Origin: Candidatus Thorarchaeota archaeon
GTDB taxonomy: Archaea; Asgardarchaeota; Thorarchaeia; Thorarchaeales; Thorarchaeaceae
DNA length: 64,000 bases
Direction: 5' to 3'
Assembly: GCA_016933575.1 (NCBI GenBank)
Contig: JAFGAR010000088.1
Location: 64,001 to 128,000 of the forward strand
How positions within the stretch are numbered: position 1 is the stretch's first letter; every line of letters starts with the position of its first letter. A program made the position numbers and the translations under genes. Under the pieces are notes generated by a model that was not told where the DNA came from, made no database searches, and worked only from the letters and a program-made list of their open reading frames with translations. Below are positions 543-10,587 of the stretch, piece by piece.

Positions 543-3500
543 TTAGCTATATTCAGTATTGGGCTGATCAAACTCTCGTTCTTCATCCCAATCCTCTTCA
601 AACGCCTCATCAATCTCCTCAACTTCTGAGGACTCCAACTCTTCAATATGCCCAATGATAGCATTTTCAAGTTTCGAGTAGTCTGAGAGAATATGCACCA
701 ACCTAAGATTCACAAGAGCCTCTGCATCAATCGAGAGATTGTATCTTGAGTTAGAATCAATATCGACAAACTGACCGCATTCTGCTAATAACGCCACATC
801 GAATATTCCCATATCCTCATTCTCTAATTCAGAAACTCTCTGATTCTCTTTCAACCCATCCAGATGTATCTTCAGATACTTCTTGAAACCACGTTCTTTT
901 TTCTGTTCATCCACACTGATTCGGAGGATGATATCGCCGCCCACACTTGTTTCCAAGAACTCCTCGCATGTTGAGGGTACTGCAATATTGTCAGAGAAGA
1001 ATGTTGAACGATGAATGAGGGGCTTGAGCACAGAGAGATCGTAGAACTCGCGTTTTCCTTCCTTGTTCTTAACCATCATTTCGTCATAATCGACATCTTT
1101 CAGGGGATCCCACTTGAGGTATGTTCCTTCACGAGTCGCAAAATACTCTCCAGTTCTCTGTGGATATCTGAGAAATCGGATCACCTCGTCGGTGTAGGGA
1201 GTTTCCTTTCTTGCAATCAGCTTAGATCCCTCAAGCAGGTTGATTCTGTAGACTCTCTTCTCGAGATTGATGGTAAGAAGACATGAAACCTCTCTGATGA
1301 CTCCAGCCCATTCAACAGCCTCACGTAACACCCTATCACACTGTGCACGAACGTTCGAGGGAAGTGATGATGGCCTGTACCCATGGAGAGCAAGGAGGGT
1401 TTCAGGCAAAGGTTCTGACAACCGTATCCATCGTACTGGCAGGCTCTTCTCCTTTGGAGGGTTTCCATACTCGAATACTCCAGCAAACGTCCATTCTTTG
1501 CCATCCTCTCCTTCACTCTTTATGTAAAGCACCTGTTGCCGGCTCACTTCGAGAAGGATAATGGGCAGTTCATCCCATCCCTCTCTTGATAGTGCAGTGG
1601 TCGCTTCAGCCTTAGTCTGTTCAGGGTCAATCACACAACGGTACCAACTATAAGGAAGGTATGCACTCATCTGACCTTCAACTAGCCCTCCGTACATAGT
1701 GTTCTTCAAGGATGGAAACAACAACCAGATGGGTCCTCCCTCACTCCCTTCTCGCCATAGCAGTTGTCCGAATCGTTCTATAAATCTCGGTCTACCTGAT
1801 GATGTCATCTTCTTCATCTGCTTCGCCCTCCATTGGAGATTCTTGTGTATTGCCTGAAAGTCGTATCGATATTCAAAGTCGTTATCATCCTCCGGTCTAA
1901 AGCCCATCTGGTGGAATTGCCATCTAGCAACAGCAGACCATAAGTCAATGCAAGATGGTGACTCTACATCTCTGAAGATATTTTCCGCTACCGAAAGTAC
2001 TGCGAGAAAGAGGTTCATCCCATAGATCTCTAGAAGCTCGACATTGTGACTCTGAGCAAGTCTGAGAGATCTCTGATTGTCTAAGTTTAATAGGCTTCCA
2101 AGACTCAGCCGAGTATTTGATAGGAGCCTCCAGAGAAGCCTGGGTTCAGTTCTTCGTAGTAGTGCATCTTTCACTTGAGTCAAAGTATTGAGTAGAATTT
2201 CATCATCACATGATTGATAATCATTGCATTCACAGATGCTGATGATATCTTGATACAATGAAAAGAGCGAGTTGCGCAACGATGTTCTATCCATCAGAAA
2301 GGTTGCAGCATAGAGCAGTCTATGAATCTCTCTTCTTCTCGTATTGGTGGTATCGATATGTGATGATTTCGTAGAATAATTGAGAGGAGGTCTACGAGTG
2401 ATAGTGACTTGCTGTTCATGCTGTTCATCATGCTCTTTGTGAATCCAGCCCCTTGTAATTCGATCAGCACCAACATGGATTCCTTGATGGCATTTTCCAA
2501 GTCTGTTTGGATGAGGTGGCGGTTGCATCAGGTCAAGATGCAACCTACTGGTCAGACTTGGCTGAGTCCTCATACTATCCACAGGATGGTAAGCTGTTTT
2601 CCAATCCTCACTGACATCATCTATCTCAATTTCATTTGTCTGCTCTAGTCTTGGTCTACACAGACTAGGTATCAGACTGGCTGCTCTCTCTTTGATTGTA
2701 TTCAGGCTCTCTCTACCAATCATGTTGCATCGAACCTGAATTGAGGCGCTATGAAACGATCTTCCGTACATGTCCTGTTGTTGGTTCAAAGCTCCAGATT
2801 GTTTACCCACTTCGACATTGAAACTCTGTGTTGCCGCCGCACTGAATTTGCGAGTCCAGCCTCTGAGATGTGGAACACAAATCACAGTTGTCCATGGTTG
2901 GTTATCTATAGGGAGGTCCTGAACGATGACTCGACTCTCATCATATTGGGGGGTTAACCATCCCATCTCTCGCGGAACTGTGGGAAGATTCCAGATTATC
3001 TCATCTACAAGTTGTCTTCGCGGCGAATTATAGTACAGAGGATTCACACACGGTCGCTGGTAGGTCTTGTTCATCTCAGGATGATTCACACCACTATCGA
3101 CCCATATCAATTCAGAGGCAAAGTCCTTCAAGATTTGGAGTAGTGACAATTCAAGTATCTGCAGACTATTTCTACGACCAACAGGTACCATACTCTCAAG
3201 GTCTGGCCAACCATCTACAATGATAATTCGTTCTCCGGATTCTTTGAGGAACATAGACTTGATTCTAGCATGGAAATCCTTCAGTCCTGAAGACCCATTG
3301 GCAAAAATCAGATTATCTGTTTCTTTTTGGAGGTCTATAAAATGTACGCGCTTGAGAACGCCGCTGAGTCTGATATACTCCAACTGACTGATTAGTCCTC
3401 TCTTTCGGAGATTACCAAGTCCGAATCTCATATTGACAAGTTTCTCAGTCGAATAGTCACCAAGAAAATCCATCCAGAAGAGAGATGGACTAGAAGTTAC

Positions 3501-5390
3501 AGTTTCTGCTAATTCAGCGAGATGATTCAACAGGTGCCAGTTTTTAGCCAGCCATGCGGCACTCTTGCCAGAGGTTGTTGGTGAAGAAACAGAGATGTAT
3601 TGAGTAAAGAAGAAACCATCCTCTACTCGTTCTGCAAAAGGGTCTTCATTTTGTGCGTTCTTGGTGGGGACAATGCTTCTCAGGAGATGCTCAGGACCTT
3701 GAGCTGGTGTCATTGTGATAGCGATGCGCGGTACTGTTCCATTAATAGTCGTACACTCAAACTTGAGTGTCTTCCATTGACCACGAAATTCTCCTTCCAT
3801 TAGCTTCGTGGCCAGTTGGTCGATGAGTTGGTCAAAAGCCTTCTTCGTTACTTTAAAGCCCTGGAATGTGTCAAGAGTTACAACTCCCTTCCAGACACGT
3901 TTTGGTGCCAGCGGATTGTTGACAAGGGTATTGAATTCGGTAAGTAGTATTCGCTCGTATTCATCTAACTGGTCAAGATGGGACTTTGGAGGTTTGGAAC
4001 CTAATACTGCATTCCATTCAGAATCCGTAAGACGCTCTTTCCAGGAATGGAGTACTGGAACGTAGACGTCCTTCTTCCTAGTTCGAGGTTTCATTCCATA
4101 GATATTGAAGTTGAATCCTCCTTTCGTCTTTACTTCAAGAATCATAACAGGAGTCCAGATGTACTGCCCTGCACCTCTCAATATTCGTGCAAAAAGTACA
4201 AGATCTATCTTTCCAGCTCCCTGATCCCCAACGACAGGAACCTCCGCCAGATATTGTATTCCAGACGGATTCTGCAGAAATTCATCGCCTGCAAAGACAA
4301 CCTCTCTCAGAGATTTTGGGTGGCAGAACCCTGAGAGGAGCACTCTGTGCCAGTCATTCCCTTCTCTTTGTGTCTTCTTTGTAATCTCTTCGAAGAATTT
4401 TGAGGTTTCTTTACCTGTGATAATTCCATTTCGAATATGACCAAGGACAACCTCACCCCGCTCTCTGACATATTCCTCTTCTGAAGACTCCAGAGTCGTT
4501 TCGACTCTCTTTTTTAGAAATTCAACATCAAGGCCTGTTGGAGGAGTCTCTATTTGCTTGCTAATGCTCTCACTTATTCCACTCTTATCACCGAAATGAG
4601 TCCTGATTTCAAGTACAATCTTGCTAAGTTCTTTATCCGCATCAGGATGGAAGTTCTTTCGACCAACTTTACCTTGTGTGTAGACCCAATCGAGGAATGG
4701 TATGAGCCTATGAATCAGTAACCGGATATATCTATGACACTCGCGGCGAGGAACAGTGTGGATGAAGCATTGCCGACAGAGCTCTATGAGGTGCGCGCGA
4801 ATCATGTCAGCAAAGTCGAGGACGGGAAGGGTCGGATGCGCAAGGAGAACGCGCGGATTTTTTGAATTCCCTCGGTACCCTGCCTTCTGGTGAATTTTTA
4901 CACCCCTCTCCAGTGGTATTCTATCAGCTACACCCTCGGGAATGATATCTACTCGACCATCTCTGTATTTTCTTATCTGGTAGAGGTCTGGGTCTGGAAA
5001 ATAGTATCGAGGGACTAACACATCTCGTAACAGAGAACCCATATAGTTGAGGAGTTCATTAAGTGGCCCAACGGTCCCCTCTCTCCAGTTGTAAACCCGT
5101 TTGAACTCCTTGTTACCGTATCGTTTTGTACTGTACCAGAGCATCTGAAGGTACAATCTTCTCAGAACAGACTCTCTATTCTGTATGGAAGAGAAGTCAT
5201 ATGAGCCCTGTTCTCTGCAAGACGCCCATTCAGTACGCGCAACTTCCCAGTTGCACCTGATCTGTTCATAGAAAACGTTCGTCAGGTCGTTCTTTCTTTT
5301 GTAGGAAAGCCTGACTAAGGCTGATAGTCCTGAGTATATTGCATCTGCCAGAACCTCATTCGGTCGGATTTCTTGGACTTTTCGCCCCAA
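543..5390 (-). CDS. 1615-aa orphan with RecB-like PD-(D/E)xK nuclease motifs and a degenerate P-loop domain
   Basis: Long uninterrupted ORF. Motifs: GNDWH (~344-348), E383, GKID396, E419VK421, Q474LDEY, then SPTTSGKS (~603-610) and IIIVDG (~722-727). Acidic C-terminal tail. Confidence 0.7.
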   Translation of the reverse strand: MGRKVQEIRPNEVLADAIYSGLSALVRLSYKRKNDLTNVFYEQIRCNWEVARTEWASCREQGSYDFSSIQNRESVLRRLYLQMLWYSTKRYGNKEFKRVYNWREGTVGPLNELLNYMGSLLRDVLVPRYYFPDPDLYQIRKYRDGRVDIIPEGVADRIPLERGVKIHQKAGYRGNSKNPRVLLAHPTLPVLDFADMIRAHLIELCRQCFIHTVPRRECHRYIRLLIHRLIPFLDWVYTQGKVGRKNFHPDADKELSKIVLEIRTHFGDKSGISESISKQIETPPTGLDVEFLKKRVETTLESSEEEYVRERGEVVLGHIRNGIITGKETSKFFEEITKKTQREGNDWHRVLLSGFCHPKSLREVVFAGDEFLQNPSGIQYLAEVPVVGDQGAGKIDLVLFARILRGAGQYIWTPVMILEVKTKGGFNFNIYGMKPRTRKKDVYVPVLHSWKERLTDSEWNAVLGSKPPKSHLDQLDEYERILLTEFNTLVNNPLAPKRVWKGVVTLDTFQGFKVTKKAFDQLIDQLATKLMEGEFRGQWKTLKFECTTINGTVPRIAITMTPAQGPEHLLRSIVPTKNAQNEDPFAERVEDGFFFTQYISVSSPTTSGKSAAWLAKNWHLLNHLAELAETVTSSPSLFWMDFLGDYSTEKLVNMRFGLGNLRKRGLISQLEYIRLSGVLKRVHFIDLQKETDNLIFANGSSGLKDFHARIKSMFLKESGERIIIVDGWPDLESMVPVGRRNSLQILELSLLQILKDFASELIWVDSGVNHPEMNKTYQRPCVNPLYYNSPRRQLVDEIIWNLPTVPREMGWLTPQYDESRVIVQDLPIDNQPWTTVICVPHLRGWTRKFSAAATQSFNVEVGKQSGALNQQQDMYGRSFHSASIQVRCNMIGRESLNTIKERAASLIPSLCRPRLEQTNEIEIDDVSEDWKTAYHPVDSMRTQPSLTSRLHLDLMQPPPHPNRLGKCHQGIHVGADRITRGWIHKEHDEQHEQQVTITRRPPLNYSTKSSHIDTTNTRRREIHRLLYAATFLMDRTSLRNSLFSLYQDIISICECNDYQSCDDEILLNTLTQVKDALLRRTEPRLLWRLLSNTRLSLGSLLNLDNQRSLRLAQSHNVELLEIYGMNLFLAVLSVAENIFRDVESPSCIDLWSAVARWQFHQMGFRPEDDNDFEYRYDFQAIHKNLQWRAKQMKKMTSSGRPRFIERFGQLLWREGSEGGPIWLLFPSLKNTMYGGLVEGQMSAYLPYSWYRCVIDPEQTKAEATTALSREGWDELPIILLEVSRQQVLYIKSEGEDGKEWTFAGVFEYGNPPKEKSLPVRWIRLSEPLPETLLALHGYRPSSLPSNVRAQCDRVLREAVEWAGVIREVSCLLTINLEKRVYRINLLEGSKLIARKETPYTDEVIRFLRYPQRTGEYFATREGTYLKWDPLKDVDYDEMMVKNKEGKREFYDLSVLKPLIHRSTFFSDNIAVPSTCEEFLETSVGGDIILRISVDEQKKERGFKKYLKIHLDGLKENQRVSELENEDMGIFDVALLAECGQFVDIDSNSRYNLSIDAEALVNLRLVHILSDYSKLENAIIGHIEELESSEVEEIDEAFEEDWDEEREFDQPNTEYS

Positions 5391-5524
5391 GCAGACTCCT
5401 CGGGGGCAATTTCATAATTTTATTTATAAGTAATTCTATCTTAATTGGAATTCTTTTTTTATAATATAAAGTTCTCATAATACCTTTTTTGAAATTTTAA
5501 GCAATAATAGAATTTTTGTTTAAT

Positions 5525-5633
5525 AAGTTTATATAACTTGAATATGATACTAATACGAGTTCAAAAGACTCCTTCAGAACAAGAAAGGGAGTGAACTTGA
5601 CTGGCTCAGAAACGGGTCAGAAGTTTATATAAC
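5525..5633 (+). promoter_or_regulatory. Two identical 13-bp TATA elements AAGTTTATATAAC (5525-5537, 5621-5633)
   Basis: Exact direct repeat containing TTTATATA. The second copy lies ~23 nt before the tnpB ATG (leaderless spacing). The first is near-palindromic (AAGTTTATATAACTT). Confidence 0.65.
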
Positions 5634-5646
5634 GTAGGCGAATGCG

Positions 5647-7323
5647 ATGGCTCGGTCCCGTGGAACAACAATCAGTGTAAAGGTCCCTATTAATTGGGAT
5701 ATCATGACGCAAAGGACTCAACAGAGGTTGAGGCAGATTGTTGGAAGGGATACCCGAGTAATCCGAGCGTTCCTTGGAATAATCGAACAACACGAAAACG
5801 AATTGCTAACCGGTCGAAAGAATAACAGAATTCATGATGGAAAATTAGACAAACTCACAATTACAGCGATTAGGGTCAAAGCTGGTAACGGTCAAAGGAT
5901 CACTGTTTCTCACGATATCAAACAGAGGTTCACAAGAATCTCTACGAATGAACTTCAGGAATGCAGGCAGACAGCGGTAGCGCTCTATGAGAGCTACTTG
6001 GCATTGAAAGGAAAAAAAAGATGGAGTCCATCTCGTCCTTCGAAGGTAAACTCAACTAGAAGAATACCACGATGGACGTTCATACAAAGATTCAAGCTCG
6101 AGCAGAATTCATCATCTGTTTCAAGATGGTGGCTCAATCTTCGGGACACTCTTGACTCTGTACCTGAAGGCCGCGTAATTCATGATAGATTATCTATTCC
6201 CCTAAAGGTGTCCCCCTTTCATATCAATCAGTTCCAACGAGGAGAAGTAAAGGCATGTCAAATCTTCACTGATCTTTCAGGGAAGTGGTGGGTAAATTTC
6301 GCTATACGTGTGGCCATTTCAGAGATTCCAAGTACCATTCATCCTCCTGCTGTTCTAGGAATCGACCTTGGTATCGAGAAGGCTGCATGTACGACCTTGA
6401 TTACACCTATGAAGGTACGAGAAACCCGATTCTTCAAACAGAGGAATAAGCTTGAAGTTATCAAGAATTACGACCGACTAGTGGCAGACCTTCAACACGA
6501 GATTTCTACTCGTATCAATACGACTCAGAATGCTGATGGTGTGCTTCAAAAAATAAGGCAGATGCGATATAAACGAGAAAGGGTTGCTCGTGGATATGAC
6601 CGAGTTCTTGTTAGAAACTTACTGGACTATATCGAAGAGTTGTCTGAGAAGTACACACTCTATGTAGCAATTGGTCGCTTGAAGAATATCCGAAATACAG
6701 CTCGAAAAGGTAACTTCAAGGGAAGAGAGTTCAGGGGAATGATTCACTCTTGGGCTTTTGCAAGAATCTCTGAGAGTCTAAAACATGGATTAGCCCAAAA
6801 AGGCTGGTCTGTGGAGGGAAAAGACGCGAGATTCCGTGCAGTTCCTGAAGCTTGGACATCCATCATGTGTTGGAAATGCGGTAGCAAAGGAGTAAGATCC
6901 AAACAGAATTACTTCAATTGTCCATCGTGTGGTCACAAAACAAATGCAGATAGGAATGGAGCAATCAATATCGCCGGACGTCTTATTACGCTCACAAAGT
7001 CATTGCACAATGTGAGAGGACTAGGTAAGTGGGAAACCTCTGTTCAGGCAGGGAAATACTCACGACCGAAAGCCCGAAAGAAGATGCCTTCTCAAGGGAA
7101 GTTCTTACTCTCCGAAGAAGATGAAACATCACATCTTGGAGAGTCCGCGGCTGTTCACTTTGTCCAGATGGACCTTATTAGTTTCAGTGATGGAATTAGT
7201 GAGGGCGATGACGATCCCGCCGTGGAAAATACTGTGGAAATCCTCTCTGTTGCTAGAAGTGATGCTCCGGCGTTAGAACAGGAGAAAGAAGCCAGGTCTT
7301 CAGGAGGGATTCCATCCCAATGA
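5647..7323 (+). CDS. tnpB: TnpB-family (Cas12f/Fanzor-related) RNA-guided endonuclease with rearranged RuvC site
   Basis: RuvC-I LGID240LG; RuvC-II position VAIG343RL; alternative Glu VPE401AWTS; Zn ribbon C408/C411/C425/C428; RuvC-III NAD435RNGAINI; ~115-aa C-terminal tail. Confidence 0.9.
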   Translation: MARSRGTTISVKVPINWDIMTQRTQQRLRQIVGRDTRVIRAFLGIIEQHENELLTGRKNNRIHDGKLDKLTITAIRVKAGNGQRITVSHDIKQRFTRISTNELQECRQTAVALYESYLALKGKKRWSPSRPSKVNSTRRIPRWTFIQRFKLEQNSSSVSRWWLNLRDTLDSVPEGRVIHDRLSIPLKVSPFHINQFQRGEVKACQIFTDLSGKWWVNFAIRVAISEIPSTIHPPAVLGIDLGIEKAACTTLITPMKVRETRFFKQRNKLEVIKNYDRLVADLQHEISTRINTTQNADGVLQKIRQMRYKRERVARGYDRVLVRNLLDYIEELSEKYTLYVAIGRLKNIRNTARKGNFKGREFRGMIHSWAFARISESLKHGLAQKGWSVEGKDARFRAVPEAWTSIMCWKCGSKGVRSKQNYFNCPSCGHKTNADRNGAINIAGRLITLTKSLHNVRGLGKWETSVQAGKYSRPKARKKMPSQGKFLLSEEDETSHLGESAAVHFVQMDLISFSDGISEGDDDPAVENTVEILSVARSDAPALEQEKEARSSGGIPSQ

Positions 7324-7557
7324 TAGCAGACAAAGCTCTTGCTGATTACATTCTCTGTGGAGTATGTAAGATGGCGACATCAAGTAAGGGAAGGGTAGAA
7401 CACAGAAGTTTCTTTCAGTTGAATTTCACTCAACAAGGGAGATTCAAATTGTATGAATACTTGTAATACTCACCTATACTCAGATGAAAGATTCAGGTCG
7501 TATTTGTCCTTGTAATACTCAGATACTGATAATATAATAGCAAAAGAAGAGGAAACC

Positions 7558-7576
7558 GAGAGAGGTGACCTCTCTC
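7558..7576 (-). terminator. Hairpin terminator after rpl2
   Basis: GAGAGAGG-TGA-CCTCTCTC inverted repeat, followed on the minus strand by a pyrimidine/T tract. Confidence 0.6.
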
Positions 7577-7590
7577 AGTTCAAGAACTGT

Positions 7591-8313
7591 TTACTTTGTC
7601 TTGCGACCAGTTCTTCTTGCTGCAATATTACCGACTTTACGACCCGGAGGTGCGTGTCTACTCACTGTAGAAGGTCGACCAGGTGACTGATGTGACCCAC
7701 CACCGTGTGGATGCGAGGCTGCATTCATTGCAGCACCCCTGACAACAGGCCATTTTCGCGCTGTTCCACGAGTGTGGTGCCAGACTGCACCGGCTTTCAG
7801 GAAAGGTTTCTCAGATCGGCCACCACCAGCAACGATACCAACTGTAGCTCTGCATCGTGGACTGAAAGCCTTCTGTGAGCCACTTGGAAGGCGGACCATA
7901 GCCTTGGTCTTGTCTATGGATACTATTGTTGCTGTAAGACCTGAAGATTTCACGTACTTGCCACCATCCCCGGGGCTTCCTTCAATGTTATACACTGGAG
8001 TGCCTTCAGGGATATACTCAAGCATTAGAGTATTGCCATTTGCCAATCGGGCTTCCTCTCCGCTTTCAACCACTTGACCAACATATGCTCCTTCAGGAGC
8101 CACCATGTAGTACGGTTTTGTTTCGCCTTCATAGCGAATCTCAGCTAGAGGAGCACCTCGACCAGCCTCATGGAGGAGATCAATAATAGTTCCCACATAT
8201 GTCTTGCCAGGAGCCCATTTAGGATGTCTAGCAGGAGCTATCTTCTTGTGGCTCGGAGACCTCCATTGAGTAGTGCCTCGACCTTTCCGCTGCACAAGTA
8301 TTTTTCTACCCAT
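7591..8313 (-). CDS. rpl2: 50S ribosomal protein uL2
   Basis: MGRKILVQRKGRG...VRGAAMNAASHPHGGG...VGNIAARRTG. Confidence 0.98.
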   Translation of the reverse strand: MGRKILVQRKGRGTTQWRSPSHKKIAPARHPKWAPGKTYVGTIIDLLHEAGRGAPLAEIRYEGETKPYYMVAPEGAYVGQVVESGEEARLANGNTLMLEYIPEGTPVYNIEGSPGDGGKYVKSSGLTATIVSIDKTKAMVRLPSGSQKAFSPRCRATVGIVAGGGRSEKPFLKAGAVWHHTRGTARKWPVVRGAAMNAASHPHGGGSHQSPGRPSTVSRHAPPGRKVGNIAARRTGRKTK

Positions 8314-8325
8314 TCACAAGCCTCC

Positions 8326-8589
8326 TTAGAAGATCCCGAGGTTGGTTGCAACCTCTGCAGCACTGTACTCTGGTGCTAATCTCACAAATGCCTTTTTTCT
8401 GCCATCAGGCATTATCAGTGTGTTAACCTTCGCTACTACAACGTCGTAAAGGGATTCCACGGCCCACCGGATGGTATTCTTGTTAGCCTTGGGTGCAACA
8501 TAGAAGATGAGCTTATTGTCTTTATCAACTGCTTCAAGACTCGCCTCAGTCACTACTGGGCGGATAATTATATCATTAGGGTCTACCAT
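8326..8589 (-). CDS. rpl23: 50S ribosomal protein uL23
   Basis: IIRPVVTE...KVNTLIMPDGRKKAFVRL; start moved to ATG after GAGGTG. Confidence 0.97.
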   Translation of the reverse strand: MVDPNDIIIRPVVTEASLEAVDKDNKLIFYVAPKANKNTIRWAVESLYDVVVAKVNTLIMPDGRKKAFVRLAPEYSAAEVATNLGIF

Positions 8590-8599
8590 GATGCACACC

Positions 8600-9391
8600 T
8601 CAGATGAACAAATTCTCCTTTCCGAGCCTATCAATGGCTGTTGTTGTCCAGACCACAAGACGACCAGGGTGTGTTCCCGGGGCTAGGAGTTCTGCGTTCA
8701 GACCATGAACTTCAGCAACATCAACACCAGGAATATTACGTGCGGCCTTTATGATTCCTGAATCTGTACCGATGACTATCAGTAGTGACTTAGGAGTCTT
8801 CATCTTTCGACCACGCATCTTCCCTTTACCTGCTCTGATACTGCGACCATTACTTGCTCTTTCAAGATCATCACCGAGTCCTAGAGCAGTCAAGGTTTCA
8901 AGAACCTCTTTTGTTGTTGCAAGTGTTTCCAGCTTGCTACTGACGATAAGAGGAATTGCAGGAACTTTTTCGATCTTATGACCACGATTCTTTACATACA
9001 GGGGATTTGCACTTGCTGCAATGGCTGATCGAATTGCTAGACGATTTTCCTTGGTATTGATTCTCTCAACAAGGACCTTCCGTGCCTCCGGTGGGTGTGC
9101 TACACGACCACCGACTGTACCAGGAGCGAATCCAGCTTTGTTTGCAGCACCAGTGCCACTGCCCTTAATGCGCGGCATTCTTGATCTACCATGTCCTGTC
9201 TGCCAGCTCTGAGCTGTATTGCGTTTTCCTGCGAGTTCATCAACACCATGTGGTTGAAATCTGCGGGACTGCACAGCTAATACTGCTCTCTTGATTACAT
9301 CAGGACGATATGGTGTATCAAAGTGAGCTGGTAACTCGATAGTTTCCTTGCTGGCTTTGCCAGTTAGTGTATAAGTCTTAATATTTGCCAT
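8600..9391 (-). CDS. rpl4: 50S ribosomal protein uL4
   Basis: RPDVIKRAV...TGHGRSRMPR...LLAPGTHPGRLVVWT; start 9 nt after GGAGG. Confidence 0.97.
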   Translation of the reverse strand: MANIKTYTLTGKASKETIELPAHFDTPYRPDVIKRAVLAVQSRRFQPHGVDELAGKRNTAQSWQTGHGRSRMPRIKGSGTGAANKAGFAPGTVGGRVAHPPEARKVLVERINTKENRLAIRSAIAASANPLYVKNRGHKIEKVPAIPLIVSSKLETLATTKEVLETLTALGLGDDLERASNGRSIRAGKGKMRGRKMKTPKSLLIVIGTDSGIIKAARNIPGVDVAEVHGLNAELLAPGTHPGRLVVWTTTAIDRLGKENLFI

Positions 9392-9404
9392 AGATTGCAT
9401 CCTC

Positions 9405-10412
9405 CTACTGCTTCGAAGCTGTGCTGATGTAACTGACCTGCACAGGTCGCTCCACCTTGCTCTTCTTAGGGCGTATTGCGAATCTGAGTCTGACTGGTCG
9501 CTTTATTGCGCCAGGAACAGAACCGCGGAGCATTAAGTAGTCGCCTCGGATAACACCATAATTCACAAAGCCACCAGAAGGTGTAATTTCTTCACCACGT
9601 TCACCCATCTTGACTACTTTGTTATTGAAGCTTGTACGGGTGTGAAAACCAGTCTGACCTGGTCGTGGAACGGTGTATCTGATACTGCTAGGAGTCCACG
9701 GGCCAATACAGCCTACGCCACGCTTTGTCTTTCGGGACTTGTGCTGAAGAATTCTAATTCCCCAACGGCGAACAGGACCCTGAAAACCGTGACCCTTGGT
9801 CACAGCAATGCTATCAACAAAGATTCCCTCATTGAGAATGTCCGCAACACGGACATCGGTACCTAAGACTGTCTTTGCATATTCAAAGGCTTCCTTGATG
9901 TCTTGGGAACCAATCTTGAATTCCATTACATCAGGCTTCTTCTTCGCAATCCCTGCAAGCCTTGGCTGAGTATGTATCAACATCCGAATCTCGGCAAATG
10001 AGTCGAGCTTTGACTCGAACTCACCCATCTTGGTTTCATAATCGTACTCTTTTGGTAATGGCATAGTCTTTCGGAGATCTTCGGACATACTTCCAGCAAG
10101 AACCTCCATTGAGAGCCGGAACCCATAAGGTGTACTCTCATAGCCACGAATTGAGAACGGTCTAATCGGTGGTGTGTCAATCACTGTGACCGGGATAACG
10201 GTCTCTTGTCCTTGGAATGGACTGTCAGGATTGCCAACGGTTACAACAGCATGGGTCATACCTGCCTTGTAACCAATGAAACCGAGTAGTTTTGCAGCCG
10301 AGTCAGTATACTCAGGCCAATTCTTGATACGGGGCACGAATTTAGAAGCCTTACCACGCGGCAAGTAAGCTAGACTGCCACGTCTCGGTGCATTCTTCTT
10401 TCGATGTGCCAT
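9405..10412 (-). CDS. rpl3: 50S ribosomal protein uL3
   Basis: PRRGSLAYLPR, GYKAGMTH, TKGHGFQGPVRRWG; start at MAHRKK. Confidence 0.98.
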   Translation of the reverse strand: MAHRKKNAPRRGSLAYLPRGKASKFVPRIKNWPEYTDSAAKLLGFIGYKAGMTHAVVTVGNPDSPFQGQETVIPVTVIDTPPIRPFSIRGYESTPYGFRLSMEVLAGSMSEDLRKTMPLPKEYDYETKMGEFESKLDSFAEIRMLIHTQPRLAGIAKKKPDVMEFKIGSQDIKEAFEYAKTVLGTDVRVADILNEGIFVDSIAVTKGHGFQGPVRRWGIRILQHKSRKTKRGVGCIGPWTPSSIRYTVPRPGQTGFHTRTSFNNKVVKMGERGEEITPSGGFVNYGVIRGDYLMLRGSVPGAIKRPVRLRFAIRPKKSKVERPVQVSYISTASKQ

Positions 10413-10587
10413 AATTAACACCACAAAGGTATTCGTATCGAATGGCCGATGAACTGGGCTATTCGTACTACAACAGGCGCGAAAAGTGGAGATGGTTTTT
10501 AAAACTTGCCTACTGACCAAGGAACATAGATGGCATAGAATATCATGTCAGGAGAGTGGATATCTCTTTAGACTAGAGTTGAAATCA

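Follow-up and report, generated by a model that had tools for sequence, protein, structure and literature searches.

We analyzed a 64,000-nucleotide (nt) stretch of DNA from a Candidatus Thorarchaeota archaeon (assembly GCA_016933575.1, contig JAFGAR010000088.1, positions 64,001 to 128,000; referred to as the window), in which a tnpB gene and a giant gene are divergently oriented, head to head. Our results point, with a probability of about 0.72, to a TnpB-type RNA-guided endonuclease that uses an alternative RuvC-II glutamate, is served by a guide RNA (omegaRNA) overlapping the tail of its gene, has a Cas1-like partner protein, and belongs to a mobile family specific to Thorarchaeota. The locus is an aCas1-associated Asgard TnpB element of the kind reported by Altae-Tran et al. 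2023 (PMC10691335). It is thus an additional member of a known family and is not Fanzor-specific. Positions and strands of all features are compiled in Table 1.

Results

Rearranged RuvC motifs are invariant in the TnpB family

A preliminary description of this DNA had named residues D240, G343, E401, and D435 in a TnpB protein of 558 amino acids (aa), and the length and each residue were confirmed in the translation. The Gly-for-Glu swap with an alternative Glu further downstream, which it also reported, is real: the four residues and the four Cys of the zinc ribbon were invariant in 108 aligned family members (63-83% identity). A Pfam search of the protein identified PF07282 (Cas12f1-like TNB domain; 3e-12). 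In pairwise alignments to Cas12f-like chains, G343 aligned with the Glu of the EDL motif, and E401 fell in the short segment directly preceding the zinc ribbon. An AlphaFold2 (AF2) model of TnpB (predicted local distance difference test score [pLDDT], 79.9, and ~90 over aa 4-470; predicted template modeling score, 0.72) placed G343 at the end of strand beta-4 (aa 337-344), E401 directly after beta-5 (aa 396-400), and D435 at the start of a helix (aa 434-449). The topology of this model is that described for the rearranged RuvC site (PMC10691335).

A search of 5.8 billion proteins yielded 551 relatives, the best 120 of which were full length, 66-83% identical, and, where named, all from Thorarchaeota. 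Exhaustive profile-free searching of a representative library gave 909 relatives. Among the full-length relatives in the top 150 representatives, nearly all those with a readable zinc ribbon carried a Glu at a distance of six residues ahead of the first CxxC; RuvC-III was mostly NADxN. RuvC-I read D-hydrophobic-G wherever it was readable, with no case of DPG. When the alignment was extended to 62 sequences down to 23% identity, E401, D435, and the Cys residues remained invariant, and D240 and G343 were kept in at least 90%. Since these residues are conserved across wide divergence, the arrangement is real and under selection. Judged from these alignments, the RuvC site is probably built from D240, E401, and D435, with E401 replacing the canonical beta-4 Glu, here G343.

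The alternative Glu has been defined as lying six residues ahead of the zinc finger (PMC10711439). The corresponding residue E467 is essential in ApmFanzor (E467A), and the TnpB of Thermoplasma volcanium (TvTnpB), which has the same arrangement, cleaves DNA in a manner dependent on a target-adjacent motif and without collateral activity (PMC10530073). Because E401 is invariant and its position has been found catalytic both in ApmFanzor and in an archaeal TnpB (PMC10530073, PMC10711439), the protein is likely an active nuclease, in line with the "probably active" of the preliminary description.

The C-terminal tail overlaps a predicted omegaRNA

The protein had further been described as carrying a polar tail of ~115 aa after RuvC-III. 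This extension exists (123 residues follow D435), but rather than a polar domain of its own it appears to be an omegaRNA read in frame. When 57 genes were aligned by codon, conservation at third positions was 0.52-0.61 in aa 1-445 versus 0.69-0.81 in aa 446-558, and in the latter segment third positions were conserved equally with first and second positions. Nucleotide conservation across loci continued for ~124 nt beyond the stop codon and fell at ~7450. RNAalifold, applied to 50 loci, predicted 58 base pairs, 36 of them compensatory and many located inside the tail of the open reading frame (ORF). In the AF2 model, residues 472-523 and 531-558 had pLDDT values below 50. Because of the third-position constraint, the covariation, the conservation extending past the stop codon, and the disordered tail in the model, we interpret the tail as chiefly a predicted omegaRNA gene read in frame. 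The 5' limit of the omegaRNA was set by the onset of nucleotide-level conservation together with the start of standalone copies (see below).

Most loci contain the GTTCACTCA motif close to the scaffold's 3' end and end in AGGTCA or AGGTTA. The window carries a variant motif core, TTTCACTCA (7424-7432), and CAAATTG instead of the usual end; a copy of the consensus type is located elsewhere in the same genome (C64:263609-265410). Most loci have different sequences in the ~20 nt following the scaffold, i.e., the guide position; several such sequences are common to loci of different genomes. In the window, the scaffold end and guide position are duplicated in tandem. A second scaffold-end copy, followed by different sequence, was also observed at two other loci (L020 and L076). 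An exact copy of the repeated CTTGTAATACTCA after the scaffold occurred nowhere else in the genome, and its one-mismatch matches were near the control count. Between positions 5380 and 7620 of the window, no Rfam family matched, and no CRISPR repeat array was found, only one 49-nt tandem duplication. One metatranscriptome run from the same study yielded a single 160-nt contig identical to 6182-6341 and no contig on the omegaRNA, and a second RNA run yielded no contig for the locus. These data are too sparse to argue for or against transcription.

The partner gene encodes a giant Cas1-like protein

The giant ORFs matched no Pfam, NCBIfam, or PADLOC family, and the giant-protein profile matched no solved chain by sequence. 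Similarity was detected in the predicted fold of the N-terminal 330 aa (pLDDT 89): in an exhaustive structural comparison (VIA-align), the 12 best-scoring chains were without exception catalytic domains of Cas1 or casposase (Z 9.4-12.9; root mean square deviation 3.6-4.1 Å over 153-199 residues), and the next unrelated chain scored Z 5.9. Foldseek returned only weak rows for the same segment (E-values of at least 0.12). Invariant motif sets were read from an alignment of 26 giant proteins, in which the N terminus contained an invariant H-x6-D-x2-D-x2-R motif. By its modeled fold, the N-terminal ~250 aa of the giant protein is a Cas1/casposase-like catalytic domain. The assignment of a second, putative RecB/Cas4-like nuclease rests on its motifs. 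The ~1100 aa of the giant protein beyond this set (aa ~340-480) belonged to no recognized family.

TnpB and giant genes are often paired and are patchily distributed

The genome to which the window belongs encodes three full-length TnpB paralogues (63-67% identical), each head to head with a giant ORF (1615-1765 aa) at a distance of ~250 nt. Exactly three giants and three TnpBs were present, all paired, with no other TnpB. In a set of 80 loci from GTDB genomes, a divergent giant gene was found 250-310 nt upstream in ~41 of the ~61 loci that could be judged. When 61 Thorarchaeia genomes were surveyed, 36 had both genes, 2 the giant gene only, 5 tnpB only, and 18 neither. Copy numbers ranged from 0 to 20 and were correlated between giant and TnpB genes (Spearman 0.86), a statistic that overstates the case because the 61 genomes are related. 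Even within one genus, the family was present in only 10 of 16 genomes, a patchy presence that fits a mobile element. Flanking sequences differed between close relatives, and the family also included solo copies, right-end fragments, and pseudogenes interrupted by stop codons. Several copies were located at contig ends, where repeats may have been collapsed.

At seven loci (L014, L042, L043, L065, L070, L074, and L079), tRNA genes adjoined just downstream of the scaffold, and in some of the tRNA-adjoining loci the guide position itself resembled a tRNA T-arm. One solo family member (L007, 7336-9801) was found beside genes for an Arf-like GTPase and a Roadblock/LC7 protein, which are typical eukaryote-like genes of Asgard archaea.

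A repeat-flanked cassette precedes tnpB

Upstream of tnpB, a conserved 5' cassette was present whether or not a locus contained the giant gene. On the minus strand of the cassette, the 3' motif recurs in inverted form (GTTCACTCC). Exact direct repeats of 12-15 nt flanked the cassette in ~40 of 66 loci, with a spacing of 93-99 nt. Each consisted of a TATA-like core and a locus-specific end, so that the repeats were identical within a locus and different between loci. The repeat proximal to the start codon is likely the TATA box of the tnpB promoter. RNAalifold detected almost nothing in the cassette. A three-helix structure paired in 87% of cells and hardly covaried; because its helices pair but hardly covary, the cassette may act as a DNA site.

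Some omegaRNA genes stand alone

Searching the genome of the window with a covariance model of the 3' scaffold revealed five copies: three with tnpB, one complete copy without tnpB, and one fragment. The complete tnpB-less copy has its own TATA box, and a second standalone omegaRNA lies on an unrelated contig between a methyltransferase gene and a PGK gene (Table 1). In the representative library, about twenty "proteins" of 100-140 aa matched the TnpB tail only.

The locus belongs to the aCas1-associated TnpB family

Two groups of Asgard TnpBs associated with a Cas1 homologue (aCas1) have been reported, in which the region downstream of the gene contains a hypervariable stretch as well as the conserved GTTCACTCA motif (PMC10691335). 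Since the giant protein has a Cas1-like N terminus, the family carries the GTTCACTCA motif, and the host is an Asgard archaeon, we identify the locus with these aCas1-TnpB elements. As in the published groups (Cas1H-Asgard-1 and -2), tnpB lies by a Cas1 homologue, is multicopy and patchily distributed, and is followed by a variable stretch and then the conserved motif. No feature contradicts membership, the likeness being one of shared features rather than of placement in the TnpB tree of that study. The window copy differs in its variant motif. The text of PMC10691335 makes no mention of an omegaRNA overlapping a translated tail, of standalone omegaRNA genes, or of a repeat-flanked 5' cassette.

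Cas12f is closer to the protein than Fanzor2 is

According to the preliminary description, the Gly-for-Glu swap with an alternative Glu marks eukaryotic Fanzors and their closest prokaryotic relatives. This did not hold, as the alternative Glu is shared by several large clades of TnpBs from prokaryotes: it is present in the RuvC-II-rearranged (RIIr) clades (PMC10691335) and in TnpB2 (PMC10530073). The RIIr TnpBs form two major clades with eight large branches, some of them nearly exclusive to archaea (PMC10691335). The signature of Fanzors and pro-Fanzors is instead the combination of DPG with the alternative Glu, found in cyanobacterial IS607 elements. Regular-expression searches targeting the rearranged RuvC-II Glu, either alone or together with DPG, gave 3552 sequences in all, and the combination with DPG was called exceedingly rare (all PMC10711439).

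When compared with solved chains, the family profile matched AsCas12f and OsCas12f at 6e-36 to 3e-32, the mimivirus Fanzor2 (9b0l, ApmFanzor2) at 3.6e-15, and ISDra2 TnpB at 3.5e-7; SpuFanzor1 was absent from the matches. A single-sequence search of solved chains gave no Fanzor match at an E-value of 1 or below. Foldseek searches with the AF2 model likewise ranked AsCas12f and OsCas12f best (target-normalized template modeling [TM] score, 0.62-0.69; E-value to AsCas12f, 1e-15). ISDra2 TnpB and ISFba1 TnpB scored 0.66 and 0.63, respectively, and Fanzor2 appeared at rank 23 (0.56). Neither an IS607 serine recombinase (Resolvase domain) nor a Y1 (HUH) TnpA (PF01797) was found in the genome of the window, which is 85.5% complete; controls for the latter were detected. 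Ten solo tnpB copies elsewhere were preceded by ordinary host genes, with no serine recombinase beside them.

The protein therefore combines likenesses to several known nucleases. With Fanzor2 and the pro-Fanzors (PMC10711439; structure 9b0l) it has in common an alternative Glu placed six residues ahead of the initial CxxC, as well as the general TnpB fold, but those proteins have DPG and an IS607 serine recombinase, whereas this TnpB has DLG and none was found. Their hosts are cyanobacterial, viral, or eukaryotic, whereas the present one is archaeal, and Fanzor2 is less similar to this TnpB in sequence and fold than Cas12f is. [quoted passage not shown] TvTnpB, however, belongs to an IS605 element with a Y1 TnpA, while no Y1 TnpA was found here and the partner is the Cas1-like giant protein. 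The present protein (558 aa) is also longer than TvTnpB and the RIIr proteins, owing to in-frame reading of the omegaRNA region. AsCas12f and OsCas12f are type V-F effectors (8j12, 7wju, 9nzq) and provided the best profile and fold matches among solved structures; around this tnpB (5380-7620), in contrast, no repeat array was seen, and the guide would come from a single predicted omegaRNA overlapping the gene. AsCas12f uses the canonical RuvC-II Glu.

Host assignment and ribosomal neighborhood

The suspected Asgard host was borne out by the neighboring ribosomal protein L2, which is 72-89% identical to L2 of Thorarchaeota and ~59% identical to that of other Asgard classes. In the window, the L3-L4-L23-L2 cluster (7591-10520, minus strand) ends at L2 beside the tnpB element, without the following S19-L22-S3, and a rearrangement of the ribosomal cluster beside the tnpB module is possible. 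At another locus (L008), the distance between the same module and L22-S3 is ~4 kb. A ribosomal-operon insertion site shared with that locus was considered but not shown, since the L008 gene taken for L2 is not L2.

Table 1. Positions of the features of the tnpB locus and of the standalone omegaRNA genes (window coordinates unless a locus is given)
Feature	Position	Strand	Details
Divergent partner gene	543..5390	-	1615 aa (P0121), Cas1-like giant fusion protein
RecB/Cas4-like PD-(D/E)xK set (putative)	3951..4373	-	Motifs only; invariant G344, H348, E383, G393, D396, K421, Q474, Y478
Cas1-like catalytic alpha-domain (predicted)	4623..5390	-	aa 1-256; invariant E73, E95, R98, H185, D192, D195, R198
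Direct repeat 1	5525..5537	+	AAGTTTATATAAC, TATA-like; upstream of 5' cassette
Conserved 5' cassette	5554..5620	+	TACGAG...GGGTCAG; nested inverted repeats
Direct repeat 2	5621..5633	+	Identical to repeat 1; 14 nt before ATG
tnpB ORF	5647..7323	+	558 aa (P0001); aa 4-470, WED/REC/RuvC core; disordered tail after
D240 codon, RuvC-I	6364..6366	+	GIDLG; D-hydrophobic-G, not DPG
G343 codon	6673..6675	+	Canonical RuvC-II Glu position; YVAIGRL
E401 codon, alternative RuvC-II Glu	6847..6849	+	VPEAWTS; six residues before C408
C4 zinc ribbon	6868..6930	+	C408, C411, C425, C428; CxxC at 408-411 and 425-428
D435 codon, RuvC-III	6949..6951	+	NADRNG; NADRN is the NADxN of "derived" TnpB clades
Predicted omegaRNA scaffold	7012..7447	+	Overlaps ORF tail (~aa 456-558), extends ~124 nt beyond stop
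Variable hairpin in 3' scaffold	7344..7373	+	Sequence varies between loci, stem kept
TTTCACTCAAC	7424..7434	+	Window's variant of the family's near-invariant GTTCACTCA(C) motif
Scaffold end and guide position, tandem duplication	7440..7521	+	7440-7472 and 7489-7521; 79% identical, 49 nt apart
Standalone omegaRNA	L004 1517-1960		Genome of the window, C64:~173900-174345; own TATA box, without tnpB
Second standalone omegaRNA	L096 2501-2940		Between methyltransferase gene and PGK; unrelated contig

Discussion

We favor the reading as a mobile, Thorarchaeota-specific aCas1-TnpB element on the basis of the observed motif conservation, fold, RNA covariation, gene pairing, and co-occurrence. Under this reading, the omegaRNA would derive from the final ~310 nt of the ORF and ~124 nt downstream; its scaffold would end near 7447, and the next ~20 nt would serve as the guide. 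The TnpB-omegaRNA complex would cut guide-matching DNA next to a short motif, and such cutting may keep or re-home the element, by analogy to IS200/605 TnpB. The Cas1-like giant protein would move or integrate the element.

Several observations weigh against this reading. The TnpB protein scored only 84 bits with the NCBIfam model guided_TnpB, under its 100-bit cutoff, and in 27 loci the 400 nt past the giant gene's 3' end contained no shared motif. Within any genome, copies were at most 85% identical at the aa level, with none near-identical. Similarities of TnpB and of the giant protein were only weakly congruent (Mantel r 0.28; 3 of 2000 permutations), which suggests reshuffling between the tnpB-omegaRNA cassette and the giant gene. 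Finally, since both the motif TTTCACTCAAC and the scaffold end depart from the consensus, the RNA of the window copy may be partly decayed.

Two alternatives concern the nuclease itself. With the canonical RuvC-II Glu lost and replaced by G343, TnpB could be a nuclease-dead, RNA-guided DNA binder resembling TldR. This seems extremely improbable, given that D240, E401, D435, and the zinc ribbon are invariant in the family and kept over wide divergence, that ApmFanzor and TvTnpB, arranged in the same way, are catalytically active, and that the protein is not truncated and has a full-length RuvC-III. The preliminary description had instead seen relevance to the origin of Fanzors, such that the protein would be among their closest prokaryotic relatives and bear on an Asgard origin. 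The alternative Glu common to this TnpB and Fanzors, together with the Asgard host, speaks for such a relationship, yet DLG occurs in this TnpB and, where readable, in its full-length relatives among the top 150 representatives, none of which has DPG. Moreover, the profile is far closer to AsCas12f (6e-36) than to Fanzor2 (3.6e-15) and did not match SpuFanzor1, Fanzor2 ranks only 23rd by fold (TM 0.56), and the published phylogeny derives Fanzors from cyanobacterial IS607 TnpBs (PMC10711439). Because of DLG, the closer profile and fold of Cas12f, the lack of a detectable serine recombinase or Y1 TnpA in the 85.5%-complete genome, and the ordinary host genes (and no serine recombinase) by the ten solo copies, the proposed bearing on Fanzor origins is not supported, and we regard it as most improbable.

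The other alternatives concern what the genes do together. TnpB, the omegaRNA, and the Cas1-like giant protein might form a fixed host module that is no longer a transposon, serving, e.g., defense or genome maintenance with conserved guides. This would agree with the lack of near-identical paralogues, the strict 1:1 pairing in the genome of the window, the failure to find ends around the giant gene, the guide-position sequences common to loci of different genomes, and the occurrence of omegaRNA genes with their own TATA box alone among housekeeping genes. However, the family is patchy even in one genus and varies from 0 to 20 copies per genome, close relatives have different flanks, and solo copies, right-end fragments, and stop-codon pseudogenes exist; loci often adjoin tRNA genes, and the copies at contig ends suggest collapsed repeats. 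We therefore consider a fixed module rather unlikely. It is very unlikely that the Cas1-like giant protein also installs or duplicates TnpB guide units (short scaffold-end copies with new sequence behind them, and standalone omegaRNA genes), in an independent, CRISPR-like pairing of a Cas1-family integrase with the RNA-guided TnpB. Weak hints in that direction come from the tandem "scaffold end plus guide" of the window, the second copies at L020 and L076, the standalone omegaRNAs, and the 12-15-nt repeats, whose length recalls target duplications made by Cas1 or casposases. If true, such a guide-installing module would represent an extant transitional stage towards type V CRISPR.

The rearranged active site was already documented in large prokaryotic TnpB clades and is active in an archaeal TnpB, and this Asgard family with its Cas1-like partner has likewise been published. 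The probably mobile aCas1-TnpB element identified here offers no new lead on the origin of Fanzors. As a compact and strongly conserved family with a well-defined predicted omegaRNA, it is a workable candidate for studying how a Cas1-family integrase and an RNA-guided nuclease cooperate. It is also suited to asking whether standalone guide RNA genes serve in trans.

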